Source of the DNA: Octopus vulgaris
Taxonomy: Eukaryota
NCBI GenBank assembly: GCA_951406725.2
Contig: OX597843.1
Coordinates: 15,438,001-15,502,000, forward strand
Reading direction: 5' to 3'
Length of the DNA stretch: 64,000 nucleotides
In this document: positions 8,787-60,109 of the stretch, one piece after another
Layout: every line of letters starts with the position of its first letter
Numbering within the stretch: position 1 is the first letter of the stretch
The notes under the pieces: model-generated
Databases searched by the model: none
What the model was told of the DNA's origin: nothing
Seen by the model: the letters and a program-made list of their open reading frames with translations, nothing else
Translations under genes and position numbers: made by a program

Positions 8787-8956
8787 AGATAGATAGATAG
8801 ATAGATCTAATTACCTGAGTATAAGTCACATGATTATACAGAGTGGGGCAAAAATAAGTCAACAGTTAAAATGAAAATACGTACAATACTCATTTATTTT
8901 TATCAACAAAATTAAAAGCTACAATAAAAGTATTATTATGATTAATGATTAACAAG

Positions 8957-11236
8957 GGGAAGCCTTGTATACCACATCAATGGATACTTTCGGCATGAGA
9001 GAAAGGCAAAACCCAGATTGGGTCAATGCTGGGCTCTCAGAGCTGGAGCCAGTTATCGAAGCAAAGCGTGCAGCTCTGATGCAATACAAGAGTGACTCTT
9101 CTACAAAGTCACTCGAAGAACTCAGAAAGGCAAGAAATAAAACCCAACTGACAGCCAGACGCTGTGCAAATAGGTATTGGCAGGAAATCTGTCAGAGTAT
9201 CCAGTCAGCTGCTGACAGGGGCGACACCCGTGGGAAGTATTCCGGTTTGAAGAAGGCCCTCGGTCCATCCGCAACCAAGTCAGCCCCTCTGAAATCAACT
9301 ACTGGAGATCTCATCAGGGATCAAAGCAAGCAAATGGATAGATGGGTGGAGCACTACCAGGATCTCTACTCACGGGAGACTACAGTAGCTGAGGCTGCAA
9401 TCGAGAGTGTCAAGATCTTGCCAGTCATGTGAGAACTTGACAGTCCGCCATCTATAGCAGAGCTCACCAAGGCTATTGACTCCCTAGCAAGTAACAAGGC
9501 TCCGGGAAAAGACGGCATCCCCTCAGAGATCATCAAAGCCGGCAAAAACACCATCCTGCTTCGGCACCTTCATGAGATTCTGTGTCAGTGCTGGGAAGAG
9601 GGTACAGTCCCTCAGGATATGCGGGATGCTAACATCATTACGCTTTACAAAAACAAAGGTGACCGTGGTGATTGTAACAATTACCGTGGAATATCTCTTC
9701 TAAGCACTGTTGGAAAGACCTTTGCTTGCGTTATCCTGGCCAGGCTACAACTACTTGCTTCTCGAATCTATCCGGAATCGCAGTGTGGCTTTAGAAGAAG
9801 CTGATCAACTATTGACATGATATTCTCCATACGCCAACTTCAGAAGTCCAGAGAGCAGAAATGCCATTATATATGGCCTTCATTGATCTGACAAAGGCCT
9901 TTGACTCTGTAAGTAGAAAAGGCCTCTTCATCCTGCTCCAAAAAACAGATGTCCACCAAAGCTGCTGAGGATCATCAAATCTTTCCATGATGATATGCAA
10001 GGCACCATACAACACAATGGATCAACATCAGCCGCCTTCCAAATAAAAAACGGAGTAAAGCAAGGTTGTGTCCTTGTTCCTACATTATTTAGCATCTTCT
10101 TCGTTGCTGCTCTCACATGCCTTTCAGACATCAAATGATGGAGTGTTTCTGCAGAGTAGAAGTGACGGGAGACTGTTCAGTCTCTCGCGCCTGCGTGGCA
10201 AGACCAAAATAAGAAGCGTCCTGATCAAGGAAATGATGCAGCTCTGGTATCACACACAGAAGAAGCCCTACAAAGGCTCATCAGCTGTTGTGAGCAGGCA
10301 TGTAAAGACTTTGGCTTACCTATCAGCCTCAAGAAGACCAACGTCATGGGTCGGGCTACACCGGACATCCCAAACATACATATTGGAGACCACAGATTAC
10401 AGGAGGTGGGGAAGTTTACCTATCTTGGCTCTACCGACACCTACAACCTATCCCTTGATGCTGAGCTCAAAATACGCATTGGCAAGGCATCTGCTGTGAT
10501 GCCCCAACTCTCCAAATGGGCATTGGACAACTATACGCTGACCAAGACCACAAAAATGAAGATCTACCAGGCATGTGTACTTAGCACTCTACTGTATGGA
10601 AGTGAGACTTGGACACTATACACACGCCAAGAGCGTCGCCTAAACATCTTTCACCTGCGCTGCCTCTGGAAAATCCTCCGCATCAAATGGCAGAATCATG
10701 TCCCCAACGAAGATGTCCTCAGCAAGCAGGAATACCAAGCATGTTTGCACTCCTCACACAAAGACGTATGAGATGGCTTGAGCATGTTAGCCGTATGAAA
10801 GATGGCAGAATCCCCAAGGACATACTCTACGGAGAGCTTGCTAGGGGTACTAGGTCTGTGGGTAGACCGTTCTTACGTTATAAGGATGTTTGCAAAAGGG
10901 ACATGAAGGCCTGCAACATCAAAATTAGCGGTTGGGAGGCAGTTGCCGGCAACCGTGGGGAATGGCGATGTACCGTAAAAGAGGGAATACAAAGGAGTGA
11001 CAGAGAGAGAGAGGAGAAATGGAAAGACAAGAAAAGACGTCAACAAGAGACTATGGCATTACAACCAGCCAGGAACAGTCTTCGCTACATTTGCGGTACC
11101 TGCCAGAGGGAGTGTTTGTCCAGGACAGGACTACACAGCCACAGCAGGAAATGTATCAGGACATGAAATGTAAAAGCCGGACTGGACTACTTTATGCGCA
11201 ACTCCATTTTCTCCCGAGACAAAAAGGATGCCAACA
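8957..11236 (+). mobile_element. 5'-truncated RTE/BovB-like LINE, decayed RT ORF with C-terminal C2H2 finger, 19-bp target-site duplication
   Basis: Motifs KAPGKDGIP, YKNKGDRGDCNNYRGISLLS, PESQCGFR, AFIDLTKAFDSV, GVKQGCVL, LLYGSETW, CGTCQRECLSRTGLHSHSRKC across frameshifts. TSD atgattaatgattaacaag at 8938-8956 and 11237-11255. Confidence 0.95.
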
Positions 11237-17278: not shown

Positions 17279-17378
17279 NNNNNNNNNNNNNNNNNNNNNN
17301 NNNNNNNNNNNNNNNNNNNNNNNNNNNNNNNNNNNNNNNNNNNNNNNNNNNNNNNNNNNNNNNNNNNNNNNNNNNNNN
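17279..17378. other. Assembly gap (100 N)
   Basis: Seen directly. Confidence 1.
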
Positions 17379-17420: not shown

Positions 17421-17529
17421 CTTACAACCTGCCATTGTTTGCATCCCGACAAGGAAGATAAAATTAGTGACAGCCAAAGAAGAGCACAGGCTTACTAAAA
17501 TCTTCGAACTCATTAAATCCCATGGATTT
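17421..17529 (-). CDS. aGPCR exon: ICL1-TM2-ECL1
   Basis: tttcag|(R)NPWDLMSSKILVSLCSSLAVTNFIFLVGMQTMAGCK|gtaagc; phase 2 to 0. Confidence 0.9.
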
Positions 17530-22774: not shown

Positions 22775-22896
22775 CTGAAACAAACATGAATTATTATTGT
22801 AAAAACAAGACAGACGAATGAAATTCCAAAGCCAGCGTTGGATACAATAGACAAGTAATTTGCATTTTCTTTCTCTCCTTCCTTTTGGTAGACATC
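22775..22896 (-). CDS. aGPCR exon: stalk plus TM1
   Basis: ttgtag|DVYQKEGEKENANYLSIVSNAGFGISFVCLVFTIIIHVCF(R)|gtaagt; phase 0 to 2. This frame is not in the ORF track. Confidence 0.92.
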
Positions 22897-23685: not shown

Positions 23686-23835
23686 CATTAGTACGGCAAA
23701 ACTTTTAAGACGGTCACAGGAACAAGTTACTTCTTTTCCAGGTATATAATTGGACACATTGCAGCCGTTTAGGGACCAATGGGGATCCAATCCCGAGCTT
23801 TCATCCCAGTAAACACATTGTGGTTTGTTAGCATT
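23686..23835 (-). CDS. aGPCR exon: GPS motif
   Basis: tttcag|NANKPQCVYWDESSGLDPHWSLNGCNVSNYIPGKEVTCSCDRLKSFAVLM|gttggt; C-x-Y-W...W...GC...CxC..L.SFAVLM. Confidence 0.95.
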
Positions 23836-24231: not shown

Positions 24232-24360
24232 CTGGTTTATTAAATTGAAGGATATATTAATTGGTTCATCAAGGTTGCTTATTGAAATGTTCGGGATACT
24301 TGTAGCAAGTACATGGCTGTTAATTTTAGTATTTCCTTTGGCACTGGAGTTTTGTGTTAC
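24232..24360 (-). CDS. aGPCR exon: GAIN subdomain B
   Basis: tcacag|VTQNSSAKGNTKINSHVLATSIPNISISNLDEPINISFNLINQ|gtaata; phase 0 to 0. Confidence 0.92.
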
Positions 24361-29711: not shown

Positions 29712-29869
29712 CCTATATAGCTTATCGTCCCGCATGGAGAAAAAGTTATCCGCGAAACGGATGACCTTTCTTCGTCTTTCAGATGTTTTAATAAACTCCT
29801 TGGTAATGAAATAGATGCCATGATCTTCGCATCTGCTTCTTGTTGGTCGGGATTTGGTGAGGGGTTTAT
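29712..29869 (-). CDS. aGPCR exon: GAIN, with an apparent 1-bp deletion (frameshift)
   Basis: caccag|INPSPNPDQQEADAKIMASISLPRSLLKHLKDEERSSVSRIT F/FSMRDDKLYR|gtatgg. The exon is 158 nt where the flanking phases require 159; the frame switches in the T5 run at 29740-29744. Confidence 0.88.
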
Positions 29870-31489: not shown

Positions 31490-31920
31490 GCCGCGGCCAT
31501 GCTGGGGCACCACCGCTGAATGAGCTACACTAATATGTGAATCCACCTCTGATACGTGTCACTTGGTCAACAAGGGAGTTCGATGCCGCTGCCCGCATCT
31601 GTGTCTCCTGTCGTGAGGTAGGTTCATCTGGGACCCCCGACAAGAAGAGATCCAGTTTAGTTTTAAAGAAACCCACATCCACACCATGTAAGTCTCTCAG
31701 GCATTTAGGGAGGATGTTAAAGAGCTGTGGTCCTCTGAAACCCAAGCTGTTGCAGTATCTGGACCTGTACTTTGATTGTGATGTTGGAATCTTTGGCACC
31801 ATGCATTGGCGCCCCGTTCTGCGGTTGGGGTAACTTTGAATGCCAAAGTTTGGGACAAGACCCTCCAGGATTTTCCACATGTATATCACCGCATATCTCT
31901 CCTGCCTTCGCTCTAGGGAG
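31490..31920 (-). mobile_element. CR1/L2-group LINE 3' fragment
   Basis: SLERRQERYAVIYMWKILEGLVPN...GPQLFNILPKCLR...FKTKLDLFL...VPDEP. Confidence 0.8.
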
Positions 31921-32679
31921 AATATTATATATTATTCAAGACTAGTTATAGCATTGGGTATATTAATAAGACGCTAAAACATATTTTTATACATTTAAAA
32001 TCCAGCTAGATCAATTTAATCGTTGAACATCGTAATATATATTGTTTATCAATATTATTTGGATCCTGTATTATTTTGAGTTTGATTGTTGTTGTTATTA
32101 TTATTATTGTCATTGACTGGATTTGTAGTGGACTGTTGGTTGTGGTTGAATATCTTCATAGTGTATTGTTCATTTGTTCTAATATTTTTGCACCTTTCTT
32201 TAATTTATGGGGCTTAAATGTTTCTTACTTTCCATTAGTAAATAATTTTTTTTTGATAGTTATGAGTTACGATAGATATTAATTATTAAACCTATTTATT
32301 TAGATTTTTTTATAAAAGGATCTAACGTATTACATTTAATTTAATTTGAGAATTAATTTTGTTACACAATATATTATTTAAGTATTAGTTGGTAAATTTA
32401 TTATGTAGTATGAAATTTAAGATAATTAGGTATTATATTAATTGATATTTAGTCAATTATATTATTGAGTGATTTATTAAATCTATAGATACTACACATA
32501 TATATTAATTATATAGTTAGCTTATTTAATGAGTTTGTCTATATTTGAACCATTTCTTACTTTCATTATGATATTAATGACCTGTACTAGCATTGTATAT
32601 ATTAATTAATTTTAAAGTATTGAATAATTTAAAAAATTGTTTTTAGTTTTCACTTAATGTATATATAGTATCTTATATA

Positions 32680-33786: not shown

Positions 33787-33958
33787 CCATGTTTTGGCTT
33801 CTGTTTCATTGGTTCCGTAGGAAACCCCATAGAAAAGACCATCGAATGCGTCCGGATTCACTTTGGCAACACCAATACCAAGATTAGAATAGATAGCTGT
33901 GACTTGCTGCTCCTCCAGTGGAATCTTTTCTGGGATTTCTTGTATAAGATGCAGCAAT
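33787..33958 (-). CDS. aGPCR exon: GAIN
   Basis: tcacag|(R)LLHLIQEIPEKIPLEEQQVTAIYSNLGIGVAKVNPDAFDGLFYGVSYGTNETEAKTW|gtacca; the donor is weak. Confidence 0.88.
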
Positions 33959-34903: not shown

Positions 34904-35132
34904 CTGTTGGCACTGCTATTCTCTTGTTCTGTCTCGGCCAGAACCTCCTCTGGTATGTTTAACAAATTGTTGATACTACGAAGAGTGTGGTTCAAAGTTA
35001 TATTGGCCGACACAGTCGATACAAGTGGCACCATTTTCTCGTGAAGGTCTACAGCCAATTCAACATCTTCTTTGAAATACACTGATTTCTGGGATACATC
35101 TAAAACCTCCTCCAAAATACTGTCGATGTTTC
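34904..35132 (-). CDS. aGPCR exon: GAIN subdomain A (helical)
   Basis: ttgcag|NIDSILEEVLDVSQKSVYFKEDVELAVDLHEKMVPLVSTVSANITLNHTLRSINNLLNIPEEVLAETEQENSSAN(R)|gtaata; phase 1 to 2. Confidence 0.9.
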
Positions 35133-37138: not shown

Positions 37139-37293
37139 GTTCATCAAGCAATTTCAAGTGAAGTTTCTGAACTCCTATGTTAAGCAATGCCTGGGATTTG
37201 TTCAAAACTTGGGAGATATTGCGCCGCAGTTGACTTTCAGTCATTTCGCTAAATACTGTACAGTAAATAGCAAATATTTTAATTCTGTTTGAG
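37139..37293 (-). CDS. aGPCR exon: SEA-like region, C-terminal part
   Basis: tttcag|SNRIKIFAIYCTVFSEMTESQLRRNISQVLNKSQALLNIGVQKLHLKLLDE|gtaagt; phase 2 to 1. The domain label is an inference. Confidence 0.85.
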
Positions 37294-43678: not shown

Positions 43679-44960
43679 CGGGGGACGCTCAATAAGTAAT
43701 GCCCCGTACCCATTTGAAATTGTTTGATCTAGCTGAAATTTTGCATGTGCAATTATCCATATCTCTACAGATTAAGTAGTAAATTACAGCTCTGTACTAA
43801 TTGTGGTCTCTGATTTACAGATGTTTGAACTGAGTCAAGTGTGAAATGGAGCCTGTTGAGTGTCGAGCAGTGATCCAGGTTTTGTATTTGAAAGGACGCA
43901 CACCACGGGAGACTTTTGATGAAATGAAAGTAACTTTTGGTGATGATGCCCCATCATATGATCTTGTAAAACGCTGGCATCATGAATTCAAACATGGTCG
44001 GAACTCTGTGGAAACAGCTCCCAGATCTGGTCGCCCCCTTCTGCCATTGATGAGGCATTTGTCCGTCAAGTTGAGGCTGCCATTTTGGAAGATCGACGCA
44101 TAACTATTCGCCAAATAGCCCATGAGGTCAAGATTAGTACCGGGTCTGTGGAAACTATCATTCATGACCATTTGCATATGCAAAAGGTGTCTGCCAGATG
44201 GATTCCCAGGTTGCTCACACCTTTCCAGAAGCAAGAACGCGTCGAGGGCTCGAGGATGAATTTGGAGATGTGCCAAGAAGATGAGTCAAAATTTTTCAAA
44301 AGACTGATTACACAGGATGAAATCTGGGTCCATCACTATGAACCAGAGACCAAAGCCTAGTCAATGCAGTGGAAGCACCGTGACTCACCTCCTCCAAAGA
44401 AGGCAAGGGTGCAGCCCTCCGCTGGCAAGGTCATGCTCACAGTCTTCTGGGACCAGGACGGAGTAGTGATGACAGATTTCCTGGCCAAGGGTACCACAAT
44501 TGCAGGAGCCTATTATGCTTCACTTTTGAGGAAATTAAGAGAAGCTATCAAAATCAAGAGGCGGGGCAAGATCAGCAAAGGCATCCTCCTCCTTCAGGAC
44601 AACGCTCCGGTCCACAACTCGCGTGTCGCCAGATCAGAAGTACAGGCGTGCGGCTATGAACTCCGCCCCCATCACCCTACTCTCCTGACCTTGCACACTC
44701 TCATTTTCACCTCTTCCCAGCCATGAAGTTGTTTTTGAAAATAAAGCGTTTCCCAGATGATGCAGCCTTGATTTCTGAAGTCACGTCGTGGTTGGAGGAC
44801 CAAGCTGGGGTCTTCTACAAAATCAGTCTCCAGAGCGGCATCAAACGATGGGAGAAATGCGTAACTCTGGGTGTAGAAAAGGACTAATAACTGTGCCAAG
44901 TTTCGTTGCTCTACTGTAAAGGGAAGTGTGTCAGGGGCATTACTTATTGAACGCCCCTCG
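43679..44960 (+). mobile_element. Full-length (~1.28 kb) mariner DNA transposon with a disrupted transposase
   Basis: TIRs cgggggacgctcaataagtaatgcccc / ggggcattacttattgaacgcccctcg with TA on both sides. HTH (VKRWHHEFK..RSGRP), TQDEIWV and LLQDNAPVH motifs and a degenerate YSPDL motif; stop at 44358-44360 plus frameshifts. Confidence 0.95.
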
Positions 44961-47001: not shown

Positions 47002-47054
47002 CCACAGTCTTCAACTCTAAATGTTCCCGTCACGGTTGAAAGGTCATGCTCAAT
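47002..47054 (-). CDS. aGPCR exon (SEA-like region)
   Basis: tttcag|IEHDLSTVTGTFRVEDC(G)|gtaagc; phase 0 to 2 fits both neighbours. Confidence 0.8.
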
Positions 47055-47687: not shown

Positions 47688-48058
47688 CACAAGATTAGTG
47701 AATATTTGAGTAGGATTTTATTTACTGTCAGAATCGGAAATTATATCACGGAATATATAAAGACAAAATAGTGGATAGAACAGTCTTTTTATTGACCAGC
47801 AAAAATTCAGTAAGTTAAAAAAGAAAGTTTTATGTAATAGTTTACTATCAGTAAATGGAGTTGATTGTCTGAATTTCATGAAACCTCACTATTTATTTGA
47901 CGTTTCACATTTCTTCTATAAAATATGCATGTGTGTGTGTGTGTGTGTGCGTGAGAGTGTGTATGTGTATGCATGTGTGCGCATGTTCAGTGCATATGTG
48001 TGCGCGCACGCGCGTCTGTGTACGGAGAAAGAGAGAGAGAGGGCAGATATCTACTCAC

Positions 48059-48141
48059 GGCTCTTGATATGTTCTCAGCGGGGATTTTATATTCGTTGAA
48101 CTTTTTAAAAATCAAACGAAATACGAGGGATTTGGTCCAGC
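48059..48141 (-). CDS. aGPCR exon (start of SEA-like region)
   Basis: ccatag|(G)WTKSLVFRLIFKKFNEYKIPAENISRA|gtgagt; phase 1 to 0. Confidence 0.82.
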
Positions 48142-48548
48142 CTATGGATTGATATAGAAAATAATCGCTGCGTTTATAAATGAGACACACGTCATAGATG
48201 CACATAAAACCCACATACGTAGATAAAAATATACATTCATAATCACATATACACTTAAAATACTATATATATATATATATTATTCTTATTCTACCTATTA
48301 TATACGTTTTTATTATTATTATTATTTGCAATTTACTTAAGCATTGACATTTAATTGTTATTTATTTTTTATATTTCTATTATATGTAATTTTCTAGATG
48401 GTGTAATTTAATTGTTCATTTTGAATTGATAAAAGTTTTTTTTTTATTTTAATTTTTATATATATATCTTATATTGTGTGAAATTTGATTTAGTATTTCT
48501 AAATTTAATTTTTCCCTTGTAAGTTTGGATTTTATTCACTCAAATAAT

Positions 48549-48611
<63 letters not shown>

Positions 48612-48614
<3 letters not shown>

Positions 48615-48912
48615 TTATCATTCCCTTTCTTCCTGTCGCTCTCTTCGTGTATCGGCTATCAATGCCTGCACATGGATGATTGGTTCCATACATCGTTAGG
48701 ACCTTTCTTGACTTCCTGTCCAACTCCGTTAGCTTCTCCTCTGTCCACTTCAGTTTTCCAGCGCCATTCCGAACTACTGCGACTGCGTGCGAGTTTATCG
48801 CCGAAATTATGTTCCAGGCATTCAGCTTTCTAACCAATATTTTGCTCACACGCCAAAAGTGCTCTCTTTTATTCTTTTCCTTCATGTCGTGGTGTTTGAT
48901 TCCATCTGTGAT
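48612..48912 (-). mobile_element. R4/Dong RT fragment
   Basis: KLNAWNIISAINSHAVAVVRNGAGKLKWTEEKLTELDRKSRKVLTMYGTNHP. Confidence 0.75.
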
Positions 48913-49105
48913 CTGTGAGTGTGTGTGTGTGTGTTAGAGAGAGAGAGAGAGGGGGAGAGGGAGAGAGAGAGAGAGAGAGAGCATTGCAAATAGTATACAC
49001 ACATCAAAATATTTTCCCGTATATTAATTACTATAAAATGTTCTTATTAACTATCAATTTGTAATAAACTTGTTGGTGTTATATTAGACAATAAATAACA
49101 CTTAC

Positions 49106-49289
49106 CAATGAAATCATTCTTGTTACATAAGTGTCCGACGCAACAACCAGTACAAGACGTGCCATTCGTCCGTTTATTGCATGTAAGGGTATTGTTTCTC
49201 ATAGCTTCAACACATTTTCTGTATGTGCTGCAGGACCTTTCAGTCTTCAGTTTAGCACCGTTCATTGATATTGCGAATCGGCATACAGG
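49106..49289 (-). CDS. aGPCR exon: Ly6/uPAR (three-finger)-like domain, C-terminal part
   Basis: ttacag|PVCRFAISMNGAKLKTERSCSTYRKCVEAMRNNTLTCNKRTNGTSCTGCCVGHLCNKNDFI(G)|gtaagt; CCxxxxCN signature. Confidence 0.9.
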
Positions 49290-51223
49290 CTGTAATAATA
49301 GATATGAAAATTATACACTACAACAACAATATTTATTAGTACGATTACTGCTAATTACAGCAACAACAACAGAAATGACACCACTGGGGATGTTTACCAT
49401 GCAAGTAAGTTTAATCAGTGCTTTAAAATACCCAAAAGCAATAAGTGAAACCGTAAAAGAGTTTCCGAATTGTTGAAAGAAAGTTAAAAGCATAAGTAAA
49501 ATTCCGTAAAAGTTATTGCTATTTAGTATTCAAAAATCATGTTTTAAATGCTTACAGTATCCAAACCTCTCGGATCACAAGTAGATATGGCCATCGGCTC
49601 ACGGCCTGTATGAAAACCGCATCGCACTGTCACACATCGCCCAACTTAAAATAGGTCAAATTATCCCAATAAAGATGTATCAATTCTCTAAAATTTCTTC
49701 TTACTGGAGGAATGTTCAAGAGGAATTTTTCATATAAAATTTACGGAAAATCATGCGTACAAAACTCACCAAAAAGAGAAACTAATATGCCTATACCCAA
49801 AGATGATACTGAAATATAATTGTCAGATTGAACTCCTCAGTCCAAGCAAATAAAACAGAAAATACATAAAACGAACACAAGAAAATACGGTATATTGGTA
49901 TAAAATTTGGAGAGAAAACAACCAAGGTCTTGTTAACTTAATAAGGGACATTCTGAAAGCGAAAAATATCAGAAATGGAGAAGAATATTTAAAGAAAAGA
50001 ATCCATCACGAAAACGCAATTAATAATCGCAAACACCTAACAATAATAAAAGCAATGAAAATGTAGACATTGAAGTTAGAAATAAGATTTGCATTGCCTT
50101 AGTTTGAAATTGAAACTCGTTTCTTCCAATGTTGGAAAAGTTTTAGAAAGAAAATTGGATCTCCCAAACTGAGTGAGGATGTCATGAAAAAATAACCAAT
50201 GATAGTGTCCGAAGGCTGGCGTCTTCAAAAGAGCCAATGGAGTCTGTGATTGCAAATGAATGAATCATTACATAAGCTAACTCAGCTTCAAGAAAACAGA
50301 AAGGTCTGAGATCAGAACAGACAATGAAACAGGCAACAGATTGCAGCCATGCTCTTATGTCACGCTCTATTCTCCTATATTCTCGTAATGTGAAGCATTG
50401 ATCTGTGACATTACCGGTGTCTTTTATTGTTTCTCTTGTGTTTCTTTCACCAATGTACAACTGTGTATTCAGAGATATGCCTGGCAATTTTAATTTGTGT
50501 TTTAGCTGCGTTTAATCGTATAGCTTTCACCTATTCCTGTTGAAATAATATGACCCCCATCCGTTATGTTCTGTGAAGCTTATTGTACTTCTTGATGTGA
50601 GGGCAGATTTAATCTGTTTCGAACATTTCATAATCTTGTCTATCAAACAACCACTTTTGCTATGGCCAACAGACGAAGGAGACGGTCATTTACTTCTTAA
50701 CTTTTTCCTTAATCCGCTCCCTGTAATCCCTGATAGATGGTAGGGCCAGATCCGACATCCGGTTATCCCCTCTAAAGTAAGTGGCCCGAGGTCATTCGAC
50801 AAGGAACCTTGATTCCAAGTTGACTTCTGGCCACATACATTCATACATCCTACTCTAAGGACAGCCATGTTTTGTCGGAGAAAGCTCACTTTAAGTTCGT
50901 GTGTTCGTTTCTTGAATAGGGATTCCTGGACAGGGAAGAACATTGTGTCCTTGAACAAGGCATTTCATTTCACTTTGTTCCAGTCCAATCGAAGGAAATG
51001 TATCCCAACCTAGTGATGTTCATCTATTTCTCCCTTCTGTCGTCACATCCTTGTTTTCCCATTGAGTCATGAATAAGAAGATCGACAGGGTGTGTGTATG
51101 TCTACGCAGGAACATAAAAAAAACTAGCGAAAGCATATTACAATCTATGTGGACTTTATGGCTTTCGAGTGACGGCTGTGGATATATTTTAACGAAAAGG
51201 AAGAAAGTAATATTCCAGTTTAC

Positions 51224-51309
51224 CTCTGTTCCTGGACAGCTTGTCACTTCATTGCATATGATTCCTGAACATGTTTGACACTGTAAATTCCGTTGAAATA
51301 ACGAGTAAT
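51224..51309 (-). CDS. aGPCR exon: Ly6/uPAR-like domain, N-terminal part
   Basis: ctgtag|(N)YSLFQRNLQCQTCSGIICNEVTSCPGTE|gtaaac; LxCxxC start; phase 1 to 0. Confidence 0.88.
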
Positions 51310-51875
51310 CTACAGAATACAAGTAAATATCTGTATTTATGAACCAAATAATGCAATGCATAGCAATAACAAGAAATATTTTCTTTCAGATGTAAAAACA
51401 AATGTATGCGTGTTAGTATTGAAATCAATACATGTTAGACATATAAAGCAAATTATTAACAAAGACTATAAACCTATTTTCATGTTCATTCGGAAACGTT
51501 TCAATAATGTCACAAATTCAACTGAGAGAAGCATGAAAGCCACTTGTTGTCCTTTTAGTATTCTGATGTAACAAACACGTGAAAATCGTTGAACAAGTCA
51601 AATAAAGGGATTAAATTTGTAAGTTGCAACCATTGATGCAGTGGAAACTCCCTAATGAAACCTGAGAATCTCATTTAAGTTATGTTACAATGTCATATAG
51701 TATGTGAAGAAGGCCATAATATGTGAAGTGAGCAAAACAATATTTGGATAAACAATAAAAATTATGATCACTAATATTGTGCTTTTTCCAATATACACAC
51801 ATTTATGTATGTATGTAAGTATGTATGTATGTATGTATGTATGTATGTATGTATGTATGTATGTATGTATGTATG

Positions 51876-52379: not shown

Positions 52380-53270
52380 TGTGGTTATAAGATGTTACCG
52401 AAAGGATATGATACGACATTCAAAGACATTTTGCATCGATGTTAAGCCCCTGCCACCTTGTTTTCGTTTTAAGGAGAGGGGGTCTACTTCACCGTTTATG
52501 TGGAAATTATGTGTACTTGTCAGTATTTTCCGGGTTTTCACATAAACAGCTCGGATCTCATCAAGTGTCCAATAAAACAGCCCAAATGTTAGTATGAGTA
52601 CTTGCACAGCAAACACGTTGTGGGCCAATGTTTTATTGAATGCATAGATTTCTAAGGTCAAAATTTTATTTATTCAGCTGTAATGTTCTTTGTTTATACT
52701 TTAATGACACCTGTAAGTTAATGGTACCTGTAAAAAAGCACTTGTTTTGTTACAGGTGCTGTTATGAGATATATTTTCAACCACCCCTAGATATCTGTAA
52801 CATTCCTCTTCAGATATAGGGGAAACTGTCAGGTCATTGATGGTGATGTTGCGAGTCTGGTTTACATTTTTCGCCCTTTTCACAACCATATAACATTTAT
52901 CCTGAACAAACGCCAACCCAACATTTTTTGAGAATGTTGTAACTTGGTCAAGGCTCTTTTTCATCTCATCCATATTCTTTGCATAAAGTTTTAAGTCATC
53001 CACAAAGAAACAGCGTTCAATTTTGTAATTTCTGTTTCCTTTTGAACCAATGAGATATCCTTAACATGAATGACATGAGGTTTACAGAAAGTATAAACAA
53101 CATCATAACGAGGTTGTCCCCTTGGAATATGCCTTTGCGATATTGTATTCTGTGAGTGATAATAGTCACTCTTTGTGTTTAATTTCATGATGGTTGCCCA
53201 CAATGGAATCAGGTCAGCTATGGCTTTGATTATGGCTCACTGGAAATTTAGCAAGCTGAAGGGCTTCTAG
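52380..53270 (-). mobile_element. Decayed R4/Dong RT fragment
   Basis: FVDDLKLYAKN..., YRYLGVVEN, IYAFNKTLAHNVFAV..., RKQGGRGL across frameshifts. Confidence 0.75.
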
Positions 53271-56196: not shown

Positions 56197-56354
56197 TTTG
56201 ACATTGCGAATAATCCAGTATAGGTATTCGTTTCCCTGAGCCTTCCTGACACGTGCCAGAGACAGCAACAGTTCTGTTATAGACTTCATTAATATATTTA
56301 ACGAAGGCTGGCAAGTGACATCCACACTTCATAAGGTTATTGTATTGGAGGTTA
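56197..56354 (-). CDS. aGPCR exon: last LRR plus LRR C-terminal cap
   Basis: ttacag|(I)NLQYNNLMKCGCHLPAFVKYINEVYNRTVAVSGTCQEGSGKRIPILDYSQCQ|gtaagt; CxC...C...C LRRCT pattern; phase 2 to 1. Confidence 0.9.
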
Positions 56355-60037: not shown

Positions 60038-60109
60038 ATTGTAGCTATGCTGGGAAGGAATAAGAAAGCGCCATCTTCATATTTTTCTATTCGGTTGCTG
60101 AACAAATAT
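60038..60109 (-). CDS. aGPCR exon: single 24-aa LRR (72 nt, phase 2-2); more 5' exons probably lie beyond the window
   Basis: tttcag|xYLFSNRIEKYEDGAFLFLPSIAT(I)|gtaagc matches LxxNxIxxxxxxAFxxLxxL. Confidence 0.9.

Follow-up and report, generated by a model that had tools for sequence, protein, structure and literature searches.

Two exons in a 64,000-nucleotide stretch of the Octopus vulgaris genome (the window) very probably encode a Ly6/uPAR (LU) domain of the six-disulfide Lynx2/LYPD1 type in an ADGRG-related adhesion GPCR, where it follows the LRR cap and precedes the SEA domain; the design of this receptor very probably dates back at least to the split of bivalves, gastropods, and cephalopods, and it has been expanded in octopuses. 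With the reading frame set by the LRR exon at 60109-60038, the first LU exon (TAG acceptor, GTAAAC donor) and the second (CAG acceptor, GTAAGT donor) are joined in frame and encode 89 aa with 12 Cys, a segment that begins with LQCxxC and ends with CCxxxxCN (Table 1). It thus has the eight core Cys, the CxxC start, and the CCxxxxCN end that characterize LU domains of 60-90 residues, and its Cys-to-Asn span is 75 residues. The introns that flank the exon pair (56197/51309 and 49106/48141) are phase 1 each, the inner intron is phase 0, and the LU cassette of 270 nt, or 90 codons, is therefore symmetric (phase 1-1). Exon ends, phases, and the in-frame join confirm the two-exon, 12-Cys module with phase-1 flanking introns that a preliminary description of this DNA had proposed. 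Identical copies of the 89-aa module are present in six database proteins (P0003, P0005, P0008, P0009, P0011, P0012).

Table 1. Exons of the adhesion GPCR gene in the window, in transcript order
Feature	Positions	Strand	Length and phase	Remarks
Last LRR exon seen in window	60038..60109	(-)	72 nt, phase 2-2	
LRR C-terminal cap (LRRCT) exon	56197..56354	(-)	158 nt, phase 2-1	exon end seen as loose contig ends
LU exon 1	51224..51309	(-)	86 nt, phase 1-0	Cys 1-4, finger I
LU exon 2	49106..49289	(-)	184 nt, phase 0-1	Cys 5-12, finger II hairpin, helix, finger III, CCxxxxCN
SEA-like exon 1	48059..48141	(-)	83 nt, phase 1-0	ferredoxin-like fold in model
SEA-like exon 2	47002..47054	(-)	53 nt	
SEA-like exon 3	37139..37293	(-)	155 nt, phase 2-1	spliced directly to GAIN
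GAIN subdomain A exon	34904..35132	(-)		tblastn of relatives
GAIN exon	33787..33958	(-)		model P0008 runs through donor, then stops
GAIN exon	29712..29869	(-)	158 nt	one base out of frame at T run in assembly
GAIN exon	24232..24360	(-)		tblastn of relatives
GPS exon	23686..23835	(-)		Pfam GPS E 2.3e-12; Arg-Leu-Lys vs His-Leu-Thr of intact paralogues
TM1 exon	22775..22896	(-)		tblastn of relatives
TM2 exon	17421..17529	(-)		four residues shorter than in paralogues; then 100-N gap 17279-17378

The exon map was obtained by tblastn of six relatives, which located LRR, LRRCT, LU, three SEA exons, GAIN, GPS, TM1, and TM2 on the window, and together with the structure matches of the neighboring domains (see below) it bears out the proposed position of the module between LRRCT and SEA. 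The AG/GT ends are kept in all 14 exons. The first nine translate into 397 aa without a stop, and the O. vulgaris protein P0008 is identical at 396 of these 397 positions. GAIN and GPS precede TM1, as evidenced by the Pfam match of the GPS exon and by a GAIN match on P0031 (E 3.6e-4), and the complete 7TM domain is found in paralogues (Pfam 7tm_2, E 3e-37). The earlier LRR exons and the signal-peptide exon were not found within the window, nor were TM3-7, as only TM1-2 are present before the gap. Several database models use an upstream acceptor (window 56404-56355) that adds 17 residues ahead of the LRRCT exon. The window is otherwise repeat-rich animal DNA: by eye, remnants of broken LINE-like reverse transcriptases and mariner-like transposases lie at 8953-11163 (+), 43834-44884 (+), 31533-31931 (-), and 52398-53060 (-), and an open frame at 1586-1143 (-) presumably resembles the first transmembrane part of an amino-acid transporter.

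Splicing was followed in contigs of four public runs, placed on window positions 48040-51400 at 90% likeness; that the runs are RNA is a guess, as none is recorded as such, and at this likeness paralogues contribute, so that the joints are not attributable to the window copy specifically. The joint 49289-51224 (CT..AC on the forward strand) was found in all four runs (depths 19, 4796, 2692, and 128), the joint 48140-49105 (again CT..AC) in two of them (depths 1741 and 120), and in three of the four, loose contig ends at 51309 corresponded to the end of the LRRCT exon (compared with window 56197-56226; 30 of 30 letters in run X11, 28 of 30 in X5, and 13 letters in X12). At the family level, the junctions predicted before (51224-49289, 49106-48141, and 56197-51309) were thus all recovered. 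Exon bins of runs X5 and X11 are in the thousands and most intron bins between the LU exons are under ~25; in run X1 the intron depth is flat, and this run may contain DNA. Splicing and expression of LU receptors are real at the level of the family. One X5 contig leads from the end of the LRRCT exon (30/30 letters) directly to 48141, skipping both LU exons with the frame kept, and represents either an LU-skipping isoform or the product of an LU-less paralogue; no Octopus protein with LRRCT directly joined to SEA occurred in the database set, all of which had been retrieved via LU or 7TM. That the LU exons are part of an adhesion GPCR gene, as had been claimed, is corroborated by these transcript-like joints and by database proteins that contain LU and 7TM together, among them P0044, an unnamed full-length protein of 1155 aa that extends from LRR to 7TM on contigs of 3988-4449 bases, a contig size of 4.0-4.4 kb that only a spliced mRNA can account for.

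The three-finger (LU) fold that had been read from the Cys pattern is also predicted by AlphaFold2. The model of P0005, whose module is identical to that of the window, was built with 25 sequences (mean pLDDT 77.6; blocks of 58-89 across the LU module) and shows two hairpins, a helix, and a further strand (strands 95-101, 104-111, 116-125, and 128-137, helix 138-152, strand 160-165). It was compared against 48,161 chains, and of the best 50 rows, the three that were confined to model residues 93-177 were all LU proteins, namely Prod1 (Z 7.9, rmsd 2.8, 71/71 aligned), GPIHBP1 (Z 7.5, rmsd 2.7, 74 aligned), and Lypd6b (Z 6.9, rmsd 3.5, 80 aligned). The LRR C-cap (model residues 1-87) matched a Toll LRR region (Z 7.0), and the domain after the module had ferredoxin-like matches that included two SEA domains (TMPRSS6, Z 7.8; 2e7v, Z 7.3). 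With the model of the paralogue P0039 (mean pLDDT 59), the top five of the 50 listed rows were LU proteins with Z values of 5.4-3.5, in the order Lynx2 (Z 5.4, rmsd 3.0, 71 aligned), Prod1, Lypd6b, PSCA, and GPIHBP1. As all these Z values are below 8 and alone only middling by the tool's own scale, we predict an LU domain because fold, Cys pattern, and helix position all concur.

Other searches were less informative: Foldseek with the three-domain model gave poor global matches with no LU protein listed, phmmer of P0002 against PDB sequences returned nothing at E 10, and the list obtained with the A2 profile against solved structures was filled by LRR and GAIN-7TM matches. None of the Pfam LU-clan models scored above cut-off (best for window exon 2, E 0.26 with 11.9 bits versus 31.5 needed), and sub-threshold matches were found in one of 12 proteins in one set and in six of 19 relatives in another. 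The ESM Atlas gave one unnamed cluster at 0.75 with the LU module, which is a lead only, and with an oyster protein a match that is probably its own mollusc cluster. A published supplement lists a CDD 'LU' match (E 6e-8) at 371-447 of A0A0L8HDZ7, which is P0058, and SSF57302 at 136-215 of A0A0L8GYR2 (PMC6408891). Both spans coincide with the homologous module positions. We take SSF57302 to be the snake toxin-like superfamily.

The preliminary description regarded the extra disulfide as a novelty, but the pattern is that of a known subtype. In Lynx2, Lypd6, and Lypd6b, loops I and III contain extra Cys pairs that bring the number of disulfides to six (PDB 6ZSS, 6ZSO), and Lynx2 has a long helix at residues 51-61 (PMC7582953); a six-disulfide pattern has been described for the starfish protein Lystar5 as well (PMC9410279). 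In the octopus module, the extra Cys pairs of loops I and III are present, and the modeled helix 138-152 follows Cys 6 as its Lynx2 counterpart does. The Cys spacing is 2-4-5-6-16-5-10-8-2-0-4 in the window and 2-8-8-7-16-5-10-8-2-0-4 in human Lynx2 (from the published Cys numbers), so that 8 of 11 spacings are equal and the last seven are identical; the spacing is 2-8-9-7-16-5-10-8-2-0-4 in Pecten and 2-8-8-6-16-5-10-8-2-0-4 in Solemya. When 12 Cys were placed randomly in the same length, none of 200,000 placements reached at least 8 of the 11 Lynx2 spacings. The spacing 16-5-10-8-2-0-4 is kept in 33 of 35 distinct cephalopod-type modules; the pattern search required 12 Cys, and the Cys count, other than the spacings, is thus partly built in. 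By homology with Lynx2, the predicted pairs are C1-C5, C2-C3, C4-C6, C7-C10, C8-C9, and C11-C12.

LU exon 2 matched all 32 candidates returned by a search, of which 31 are named Octopus vulgaris, sinensis, or bimaculoides, many as 'adhesion GPCR G6-like', and the full 12-Cys pattern is present in 28. Intact paralogues have the order LRR-LU-SEA-HRM-GAIN-7TM. Four of the 32 gene models (P0001, P0002, P0003, P0004) contain two or three tandem LU end motifs and may include assembly artefacts. The cassette thus occurs in 0 to 3 copies, with the skip joint in one run, the tandem models, and its absence in Pinctada; skipping, doubling, or loss of a 270-nt cassette with phase 1-1 leaves the frame intact and would change the reach and the binding surface of the ectodomain. 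A0A0L8FLR8, A0A0L8HDZ7, and A0A0L8GYR2, all in the published table of group 3 adhesion GPCRs, cluster with the LU-receptor matches, and P0012, which is near-identical to the window copy, groups with P0040/P0043/P0047 (SH-aLRT 100); by its sequence, the window receptor is thus assigned to the group 3 expansion. The main sites of expression of this octopus-specific expansion are axial nerve cord, suckers, and skin in O. bimaculoides and the gills in C. minor (PMC6408891). The O. bimaculoides protein P0040 has a C-terminal Death domain, which has been reported already (PMC6408891). P0050, an unnamed protein of 113 aa with a like Cys pattern and a hydrophobic tail, is perhaps a stand-alone LU relative; P0048, a repeat protein without the Cys pattern, was dropped.

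A search of 1.84 billion representatives gave 26 matches, nearly all of cephalopod type, and searches with the LU-to-7TM region reached other molluscs; the starfish receptor LyAr2 did not appear among the proteins retrieved. Of 42 non-vertebrate rows, 16 have the full 12-Cys module (oysters, Pecten, Mytilus, Solemya, Haliotis, Gigantopelta, Patella, Plakobranchus, Lymnaea, three unnamed, and the nemertean Tubulanus, with variant spacing), one has a 13-Cys variant (chiton), five are partial or degenerate, and 20 lack the module, including all eight amphioxus rows, cnidarians, and short models. None of 175 other rows, mostly vertebrate ADGRG and latrophilins, matched the LU module, and the LU end motif was absent from all 114 vertebrate adhesion GPCR rows returned by the searches, which, among those returned, agrees with the earlier statement that vertebrate adhesion GPCRs are not known to carry an LU. 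A cephalopod-only HMM detected Ostrea (1e-5), Saccostrea (8e-5), and Lymnaea (9e-3) at Z 1000; a second-round HMM was built with the mollusc members, whose E-values are thereby circular, and for Tubulanus (0.28) and Liolophura (0.51) the basis is the Cys pattern together with weak Pfam matches. The order LRR-LU-SEA-HRM-GAIN-7TM is found in oysters, scallop, mussel, Solemya, limpet, abalone, and other snails. In Pinctada, LRRCT runs directly into SEA without LU, and in Dreissena the LU is degenerate, so the domain is not indispensable. A quick tree built from 52 GAIN-7TM regions unites the 26 mollusc rows in a single group (SH-aLRT 96), within which the named Octopus rows are nested (100); it leaves Tubulanus unresolved. 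As bivalve, gastropod, and cephalopod receptors share the module and fall into one mollusc group, the cassette appears to be older than the mollusc classes; judged by these sequences, the LRR-LU-SEA-HRM-GAIN-7TM design goes back at least to the bivalve/gastropod/cephalopod split, and only the expansion is octopus-specific. The architecture had been described as a lineage-specific LRR-LU-SEA-GAIN order made by exon shuffling. The order stands as given, but the family architecture also contains an HRM that is missing in the window copy, and the architecture is not lineage-specific, since bivalves and gastropods have the same domain order and starfish LU adhesion GPCRs have been published. The phase 1-1 symmetry is seen, and from it we infer an origin by exon shuffling; we go no further, because the insertion predates the mollusc classes and the intron positions were read in Octopus only.

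These results also bear on two other origins of the exon pair. The phase symmetry, and single-sequence searches that return almost only cephalopod-type proteins, would suit a recent event of exon shuffling by which the octopus lineage captured the LU, its extra disulfide being specific to octopuses. However, those bivalve and gastropod receptors that fall into one group with the octopus family have this module at the corresponding position, and human Lynx2/Lypd6 and starfish Lystar5 have the six-disulfide pattern too, which makes such a capture highly improbable. We give even less credit to the idea that the exons are a separate small Ly6 gene nested in a receptor intron, or that the Cys pattern reflects another fold. 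A stand-alone LU protein with a like pattern exists (P0050) and the Pfam scores are weak, but the contig joints lead to the LRRCT and SEA exons, full-length proteins have LU and 7TM together, and the structure matches are LU proteins. A separate nested gene is in fact ruled out at the family level by the transcript-like joints and the full-length P0044.

More serious questions concern what the module does and whether this copy still signals. We favor, with some reservation, a protein-binding and spacing function: as a rigid module, LU would act together with the LRRs on an extracellular or neighboring-membrane partner, and in intact paralogues load or binding would be relayed through SEA, HRM, and GAIN to the tethered agonist and the 7TM domain. 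Relay to the 7TM domain is the general mechanism of adhesion GPCRs. A purely structural spacer, which stiffens or lengthens the LRR-SEA stalk and itself binds nothing, seems possible but rather doubtful to us. It would fit a module that can be skipped, lost, and repeated, with two N-glycosylation sequons here and 0-4 in relatives, and with a non-Cys conservation (0.43 among five octopus paralogues, 0.21 among seven other molluscs) that is no higher than in the other ectodomains. Yet the 12 Cys are kept across bivalves, gastropods, and cephalopods, and the LU domains described so far are typically binding modules (PMC13719153). The variable non-Cys positions fit paralogue-specific binding and a spacer alike. 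As for this copy, it is quite conceivable, at somewhat less than even chances, that the locus does not signal, being a pseudogene or the source of an LRR-LU-SEA ectodomain that is secreted or acts as a decoy. The 158-nt GAIN exon is out of frame, and the 14 exons joined as they stand meet a first stop at codon 451 of 619; the database model P0008 ends ahead of the GPS, and four residues are missing after TM2. No match to an HRM exon was found between SEA and GAIN by tblastn of relatives, and the cleavable GPS motif His-Leu-Thr/Ser, seen as His-Leu-Thr in 16 of 20 rows listed, is replaced by Arg-Leu-Lys in the window copy, P0011, P0012, and P0023. On the other side, the frameshift lies within a T run, and the unrelated paralogue model P0026 is out of frame at the same exon, whereas P0027 (the close sister of P0026) and P0023 read through it in frame, a pattern compatible with recurrent homopolymer error or slippage; moreover, AG/GT ends are intact in 14/14 exons, TM3-7 may sit in or past the assembly gap, and P0012 has the same GPS as the window copy plus a full 7TM. 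Non-cleaved members exist among adhesion GPCRs, and the four sequences with Arg-Leu-Lys and without HRM are possibly a cleavage-deficient branch. Some paralogue models (P0010, P0020, P0021, P0022) repeat the SEA after the HRM and end before the rest of GAIN, with matching loose ends in runs X5 and X12, whereas in the window copy there is a single SEA and the HRM is missing; it is thus plausible that recombination between two SEA repeats removed the HRM. What the window contains is probably a paralogue that is either non-cleavable or in decay.

Standard Pfam annotation overlooks the LU, which can now be named in receptors that have expanded in octopuses and whose sites of expression include arm nerve cord, suckers, and skin (PMC6408891), and this octopus receptor family is thereby tied to a well-studied neuromodulator fold. 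The 90-codon cassette is a testable unit that can be expressed alone, deleted, or repeated, and scattered starfish, mollusc, and arthropod reports are connected with a single group of receptors that spans the molluscs, a result relevant to the way in which the ectodomains of adhesion GPCRs were assembled. Lynx2/Lypd6 proteins are modulators of nicotinic receptors or Wnt co-receptors, and octopus chemotactile receptors derive from nicotinic receptors. As a speculation to which we attach little probability, an ancient bilaterian ADGRG-like receptor with a Lynx2-type LU might have been kept in molluscs, a nemertean, and starfish and lost in chordates, with the 0-3 copies serving as a dial in octopuses, and in arm nerve cord and suckers the LU might modulate nicotinic or chemotactile receptors in the same membrane. 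If true, an adhesion GPCR would be coupled to a ligand-gated channel via a built-in Lynx2-like domain.

That an adhesion GPCR can contain an LU is already known and partly in print. The LU domains of starfish LyAr2 and LyAp2 are parts of adhesion GPCRs (PMC9410279), and two starfish LU adhesion GPCRs are listed as 'adhesion GPCR G2/G6-like', LyAr2 (XP_033635706.1) and XP_033635539.1 (PMC11595613). LyAr2 has 1113 aa with the LU at 224-305, and this LU is closest to Lynx2/LYPD6 (PMC9410279, PMC11595613); length and LU position are similar in the Ostrea protein P0061 (1133 aa, 230-305), the starfish receptor being compared by its published description only. Paramonov et al. (2026) report LU-7TM proteins in echinoderms, molluscs, and arthropods, likewise with the LU in the N-terminal region of the GPCRs, and a figure legend names GPS, LRR, LU, and 7TM (PMC13719153). 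The text of that article, as far as available to us, differs in that it mentions no SEA, Cys subtype, exon structure, or octopus expansion, and its figures and supplements may already show the octopus-type receptor family (PMC13719153). Group 3 of Ritschard et al. (2019) is the same family; the accessible main text gives LRR, GPS, 7TM, and Death and does not contain the term 'Ly6', the LU appearing only as supplement rows (PMC6408891). In the open-licence literature, with subscription papers mostly outside, we found nothing published on the assignment to the Lynx2 type, on the exon cassette, or on a receptor group that spans the molluscs, and no report of copy variation from 0 to 3. With Lynx2, Lypd6, and Lypd6b, the octopus LU shares the 12 Cys, the helix from loop III to the head, and the predicted three-finger fold, but identity to human Lynx2/Lypd6-type domains is only 20-24% in structural alignments, loop I is shorter (4 and 5 residues versus 8 and 8 in Lynx2), and Lynx2/Lypd6 are GPI-anchored stand-alone single domains, whereas the octopus LU is an internal cassette of a 7TM receptor, spliced to LRRCT and SEA exons. 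The best solved-structure matches to the GAIN-7TM region are vertebrate ADGRG2 and ADGRG6 (E 7e-93 and E 1e-82), and the SEA-HormR-GAIN core of ADGRG6 is shared by the octopus receptor family; vertebrate ADGRG6/G2/G4, however, have CUB and pentraxin where the octopus receptor has LRR and LU.
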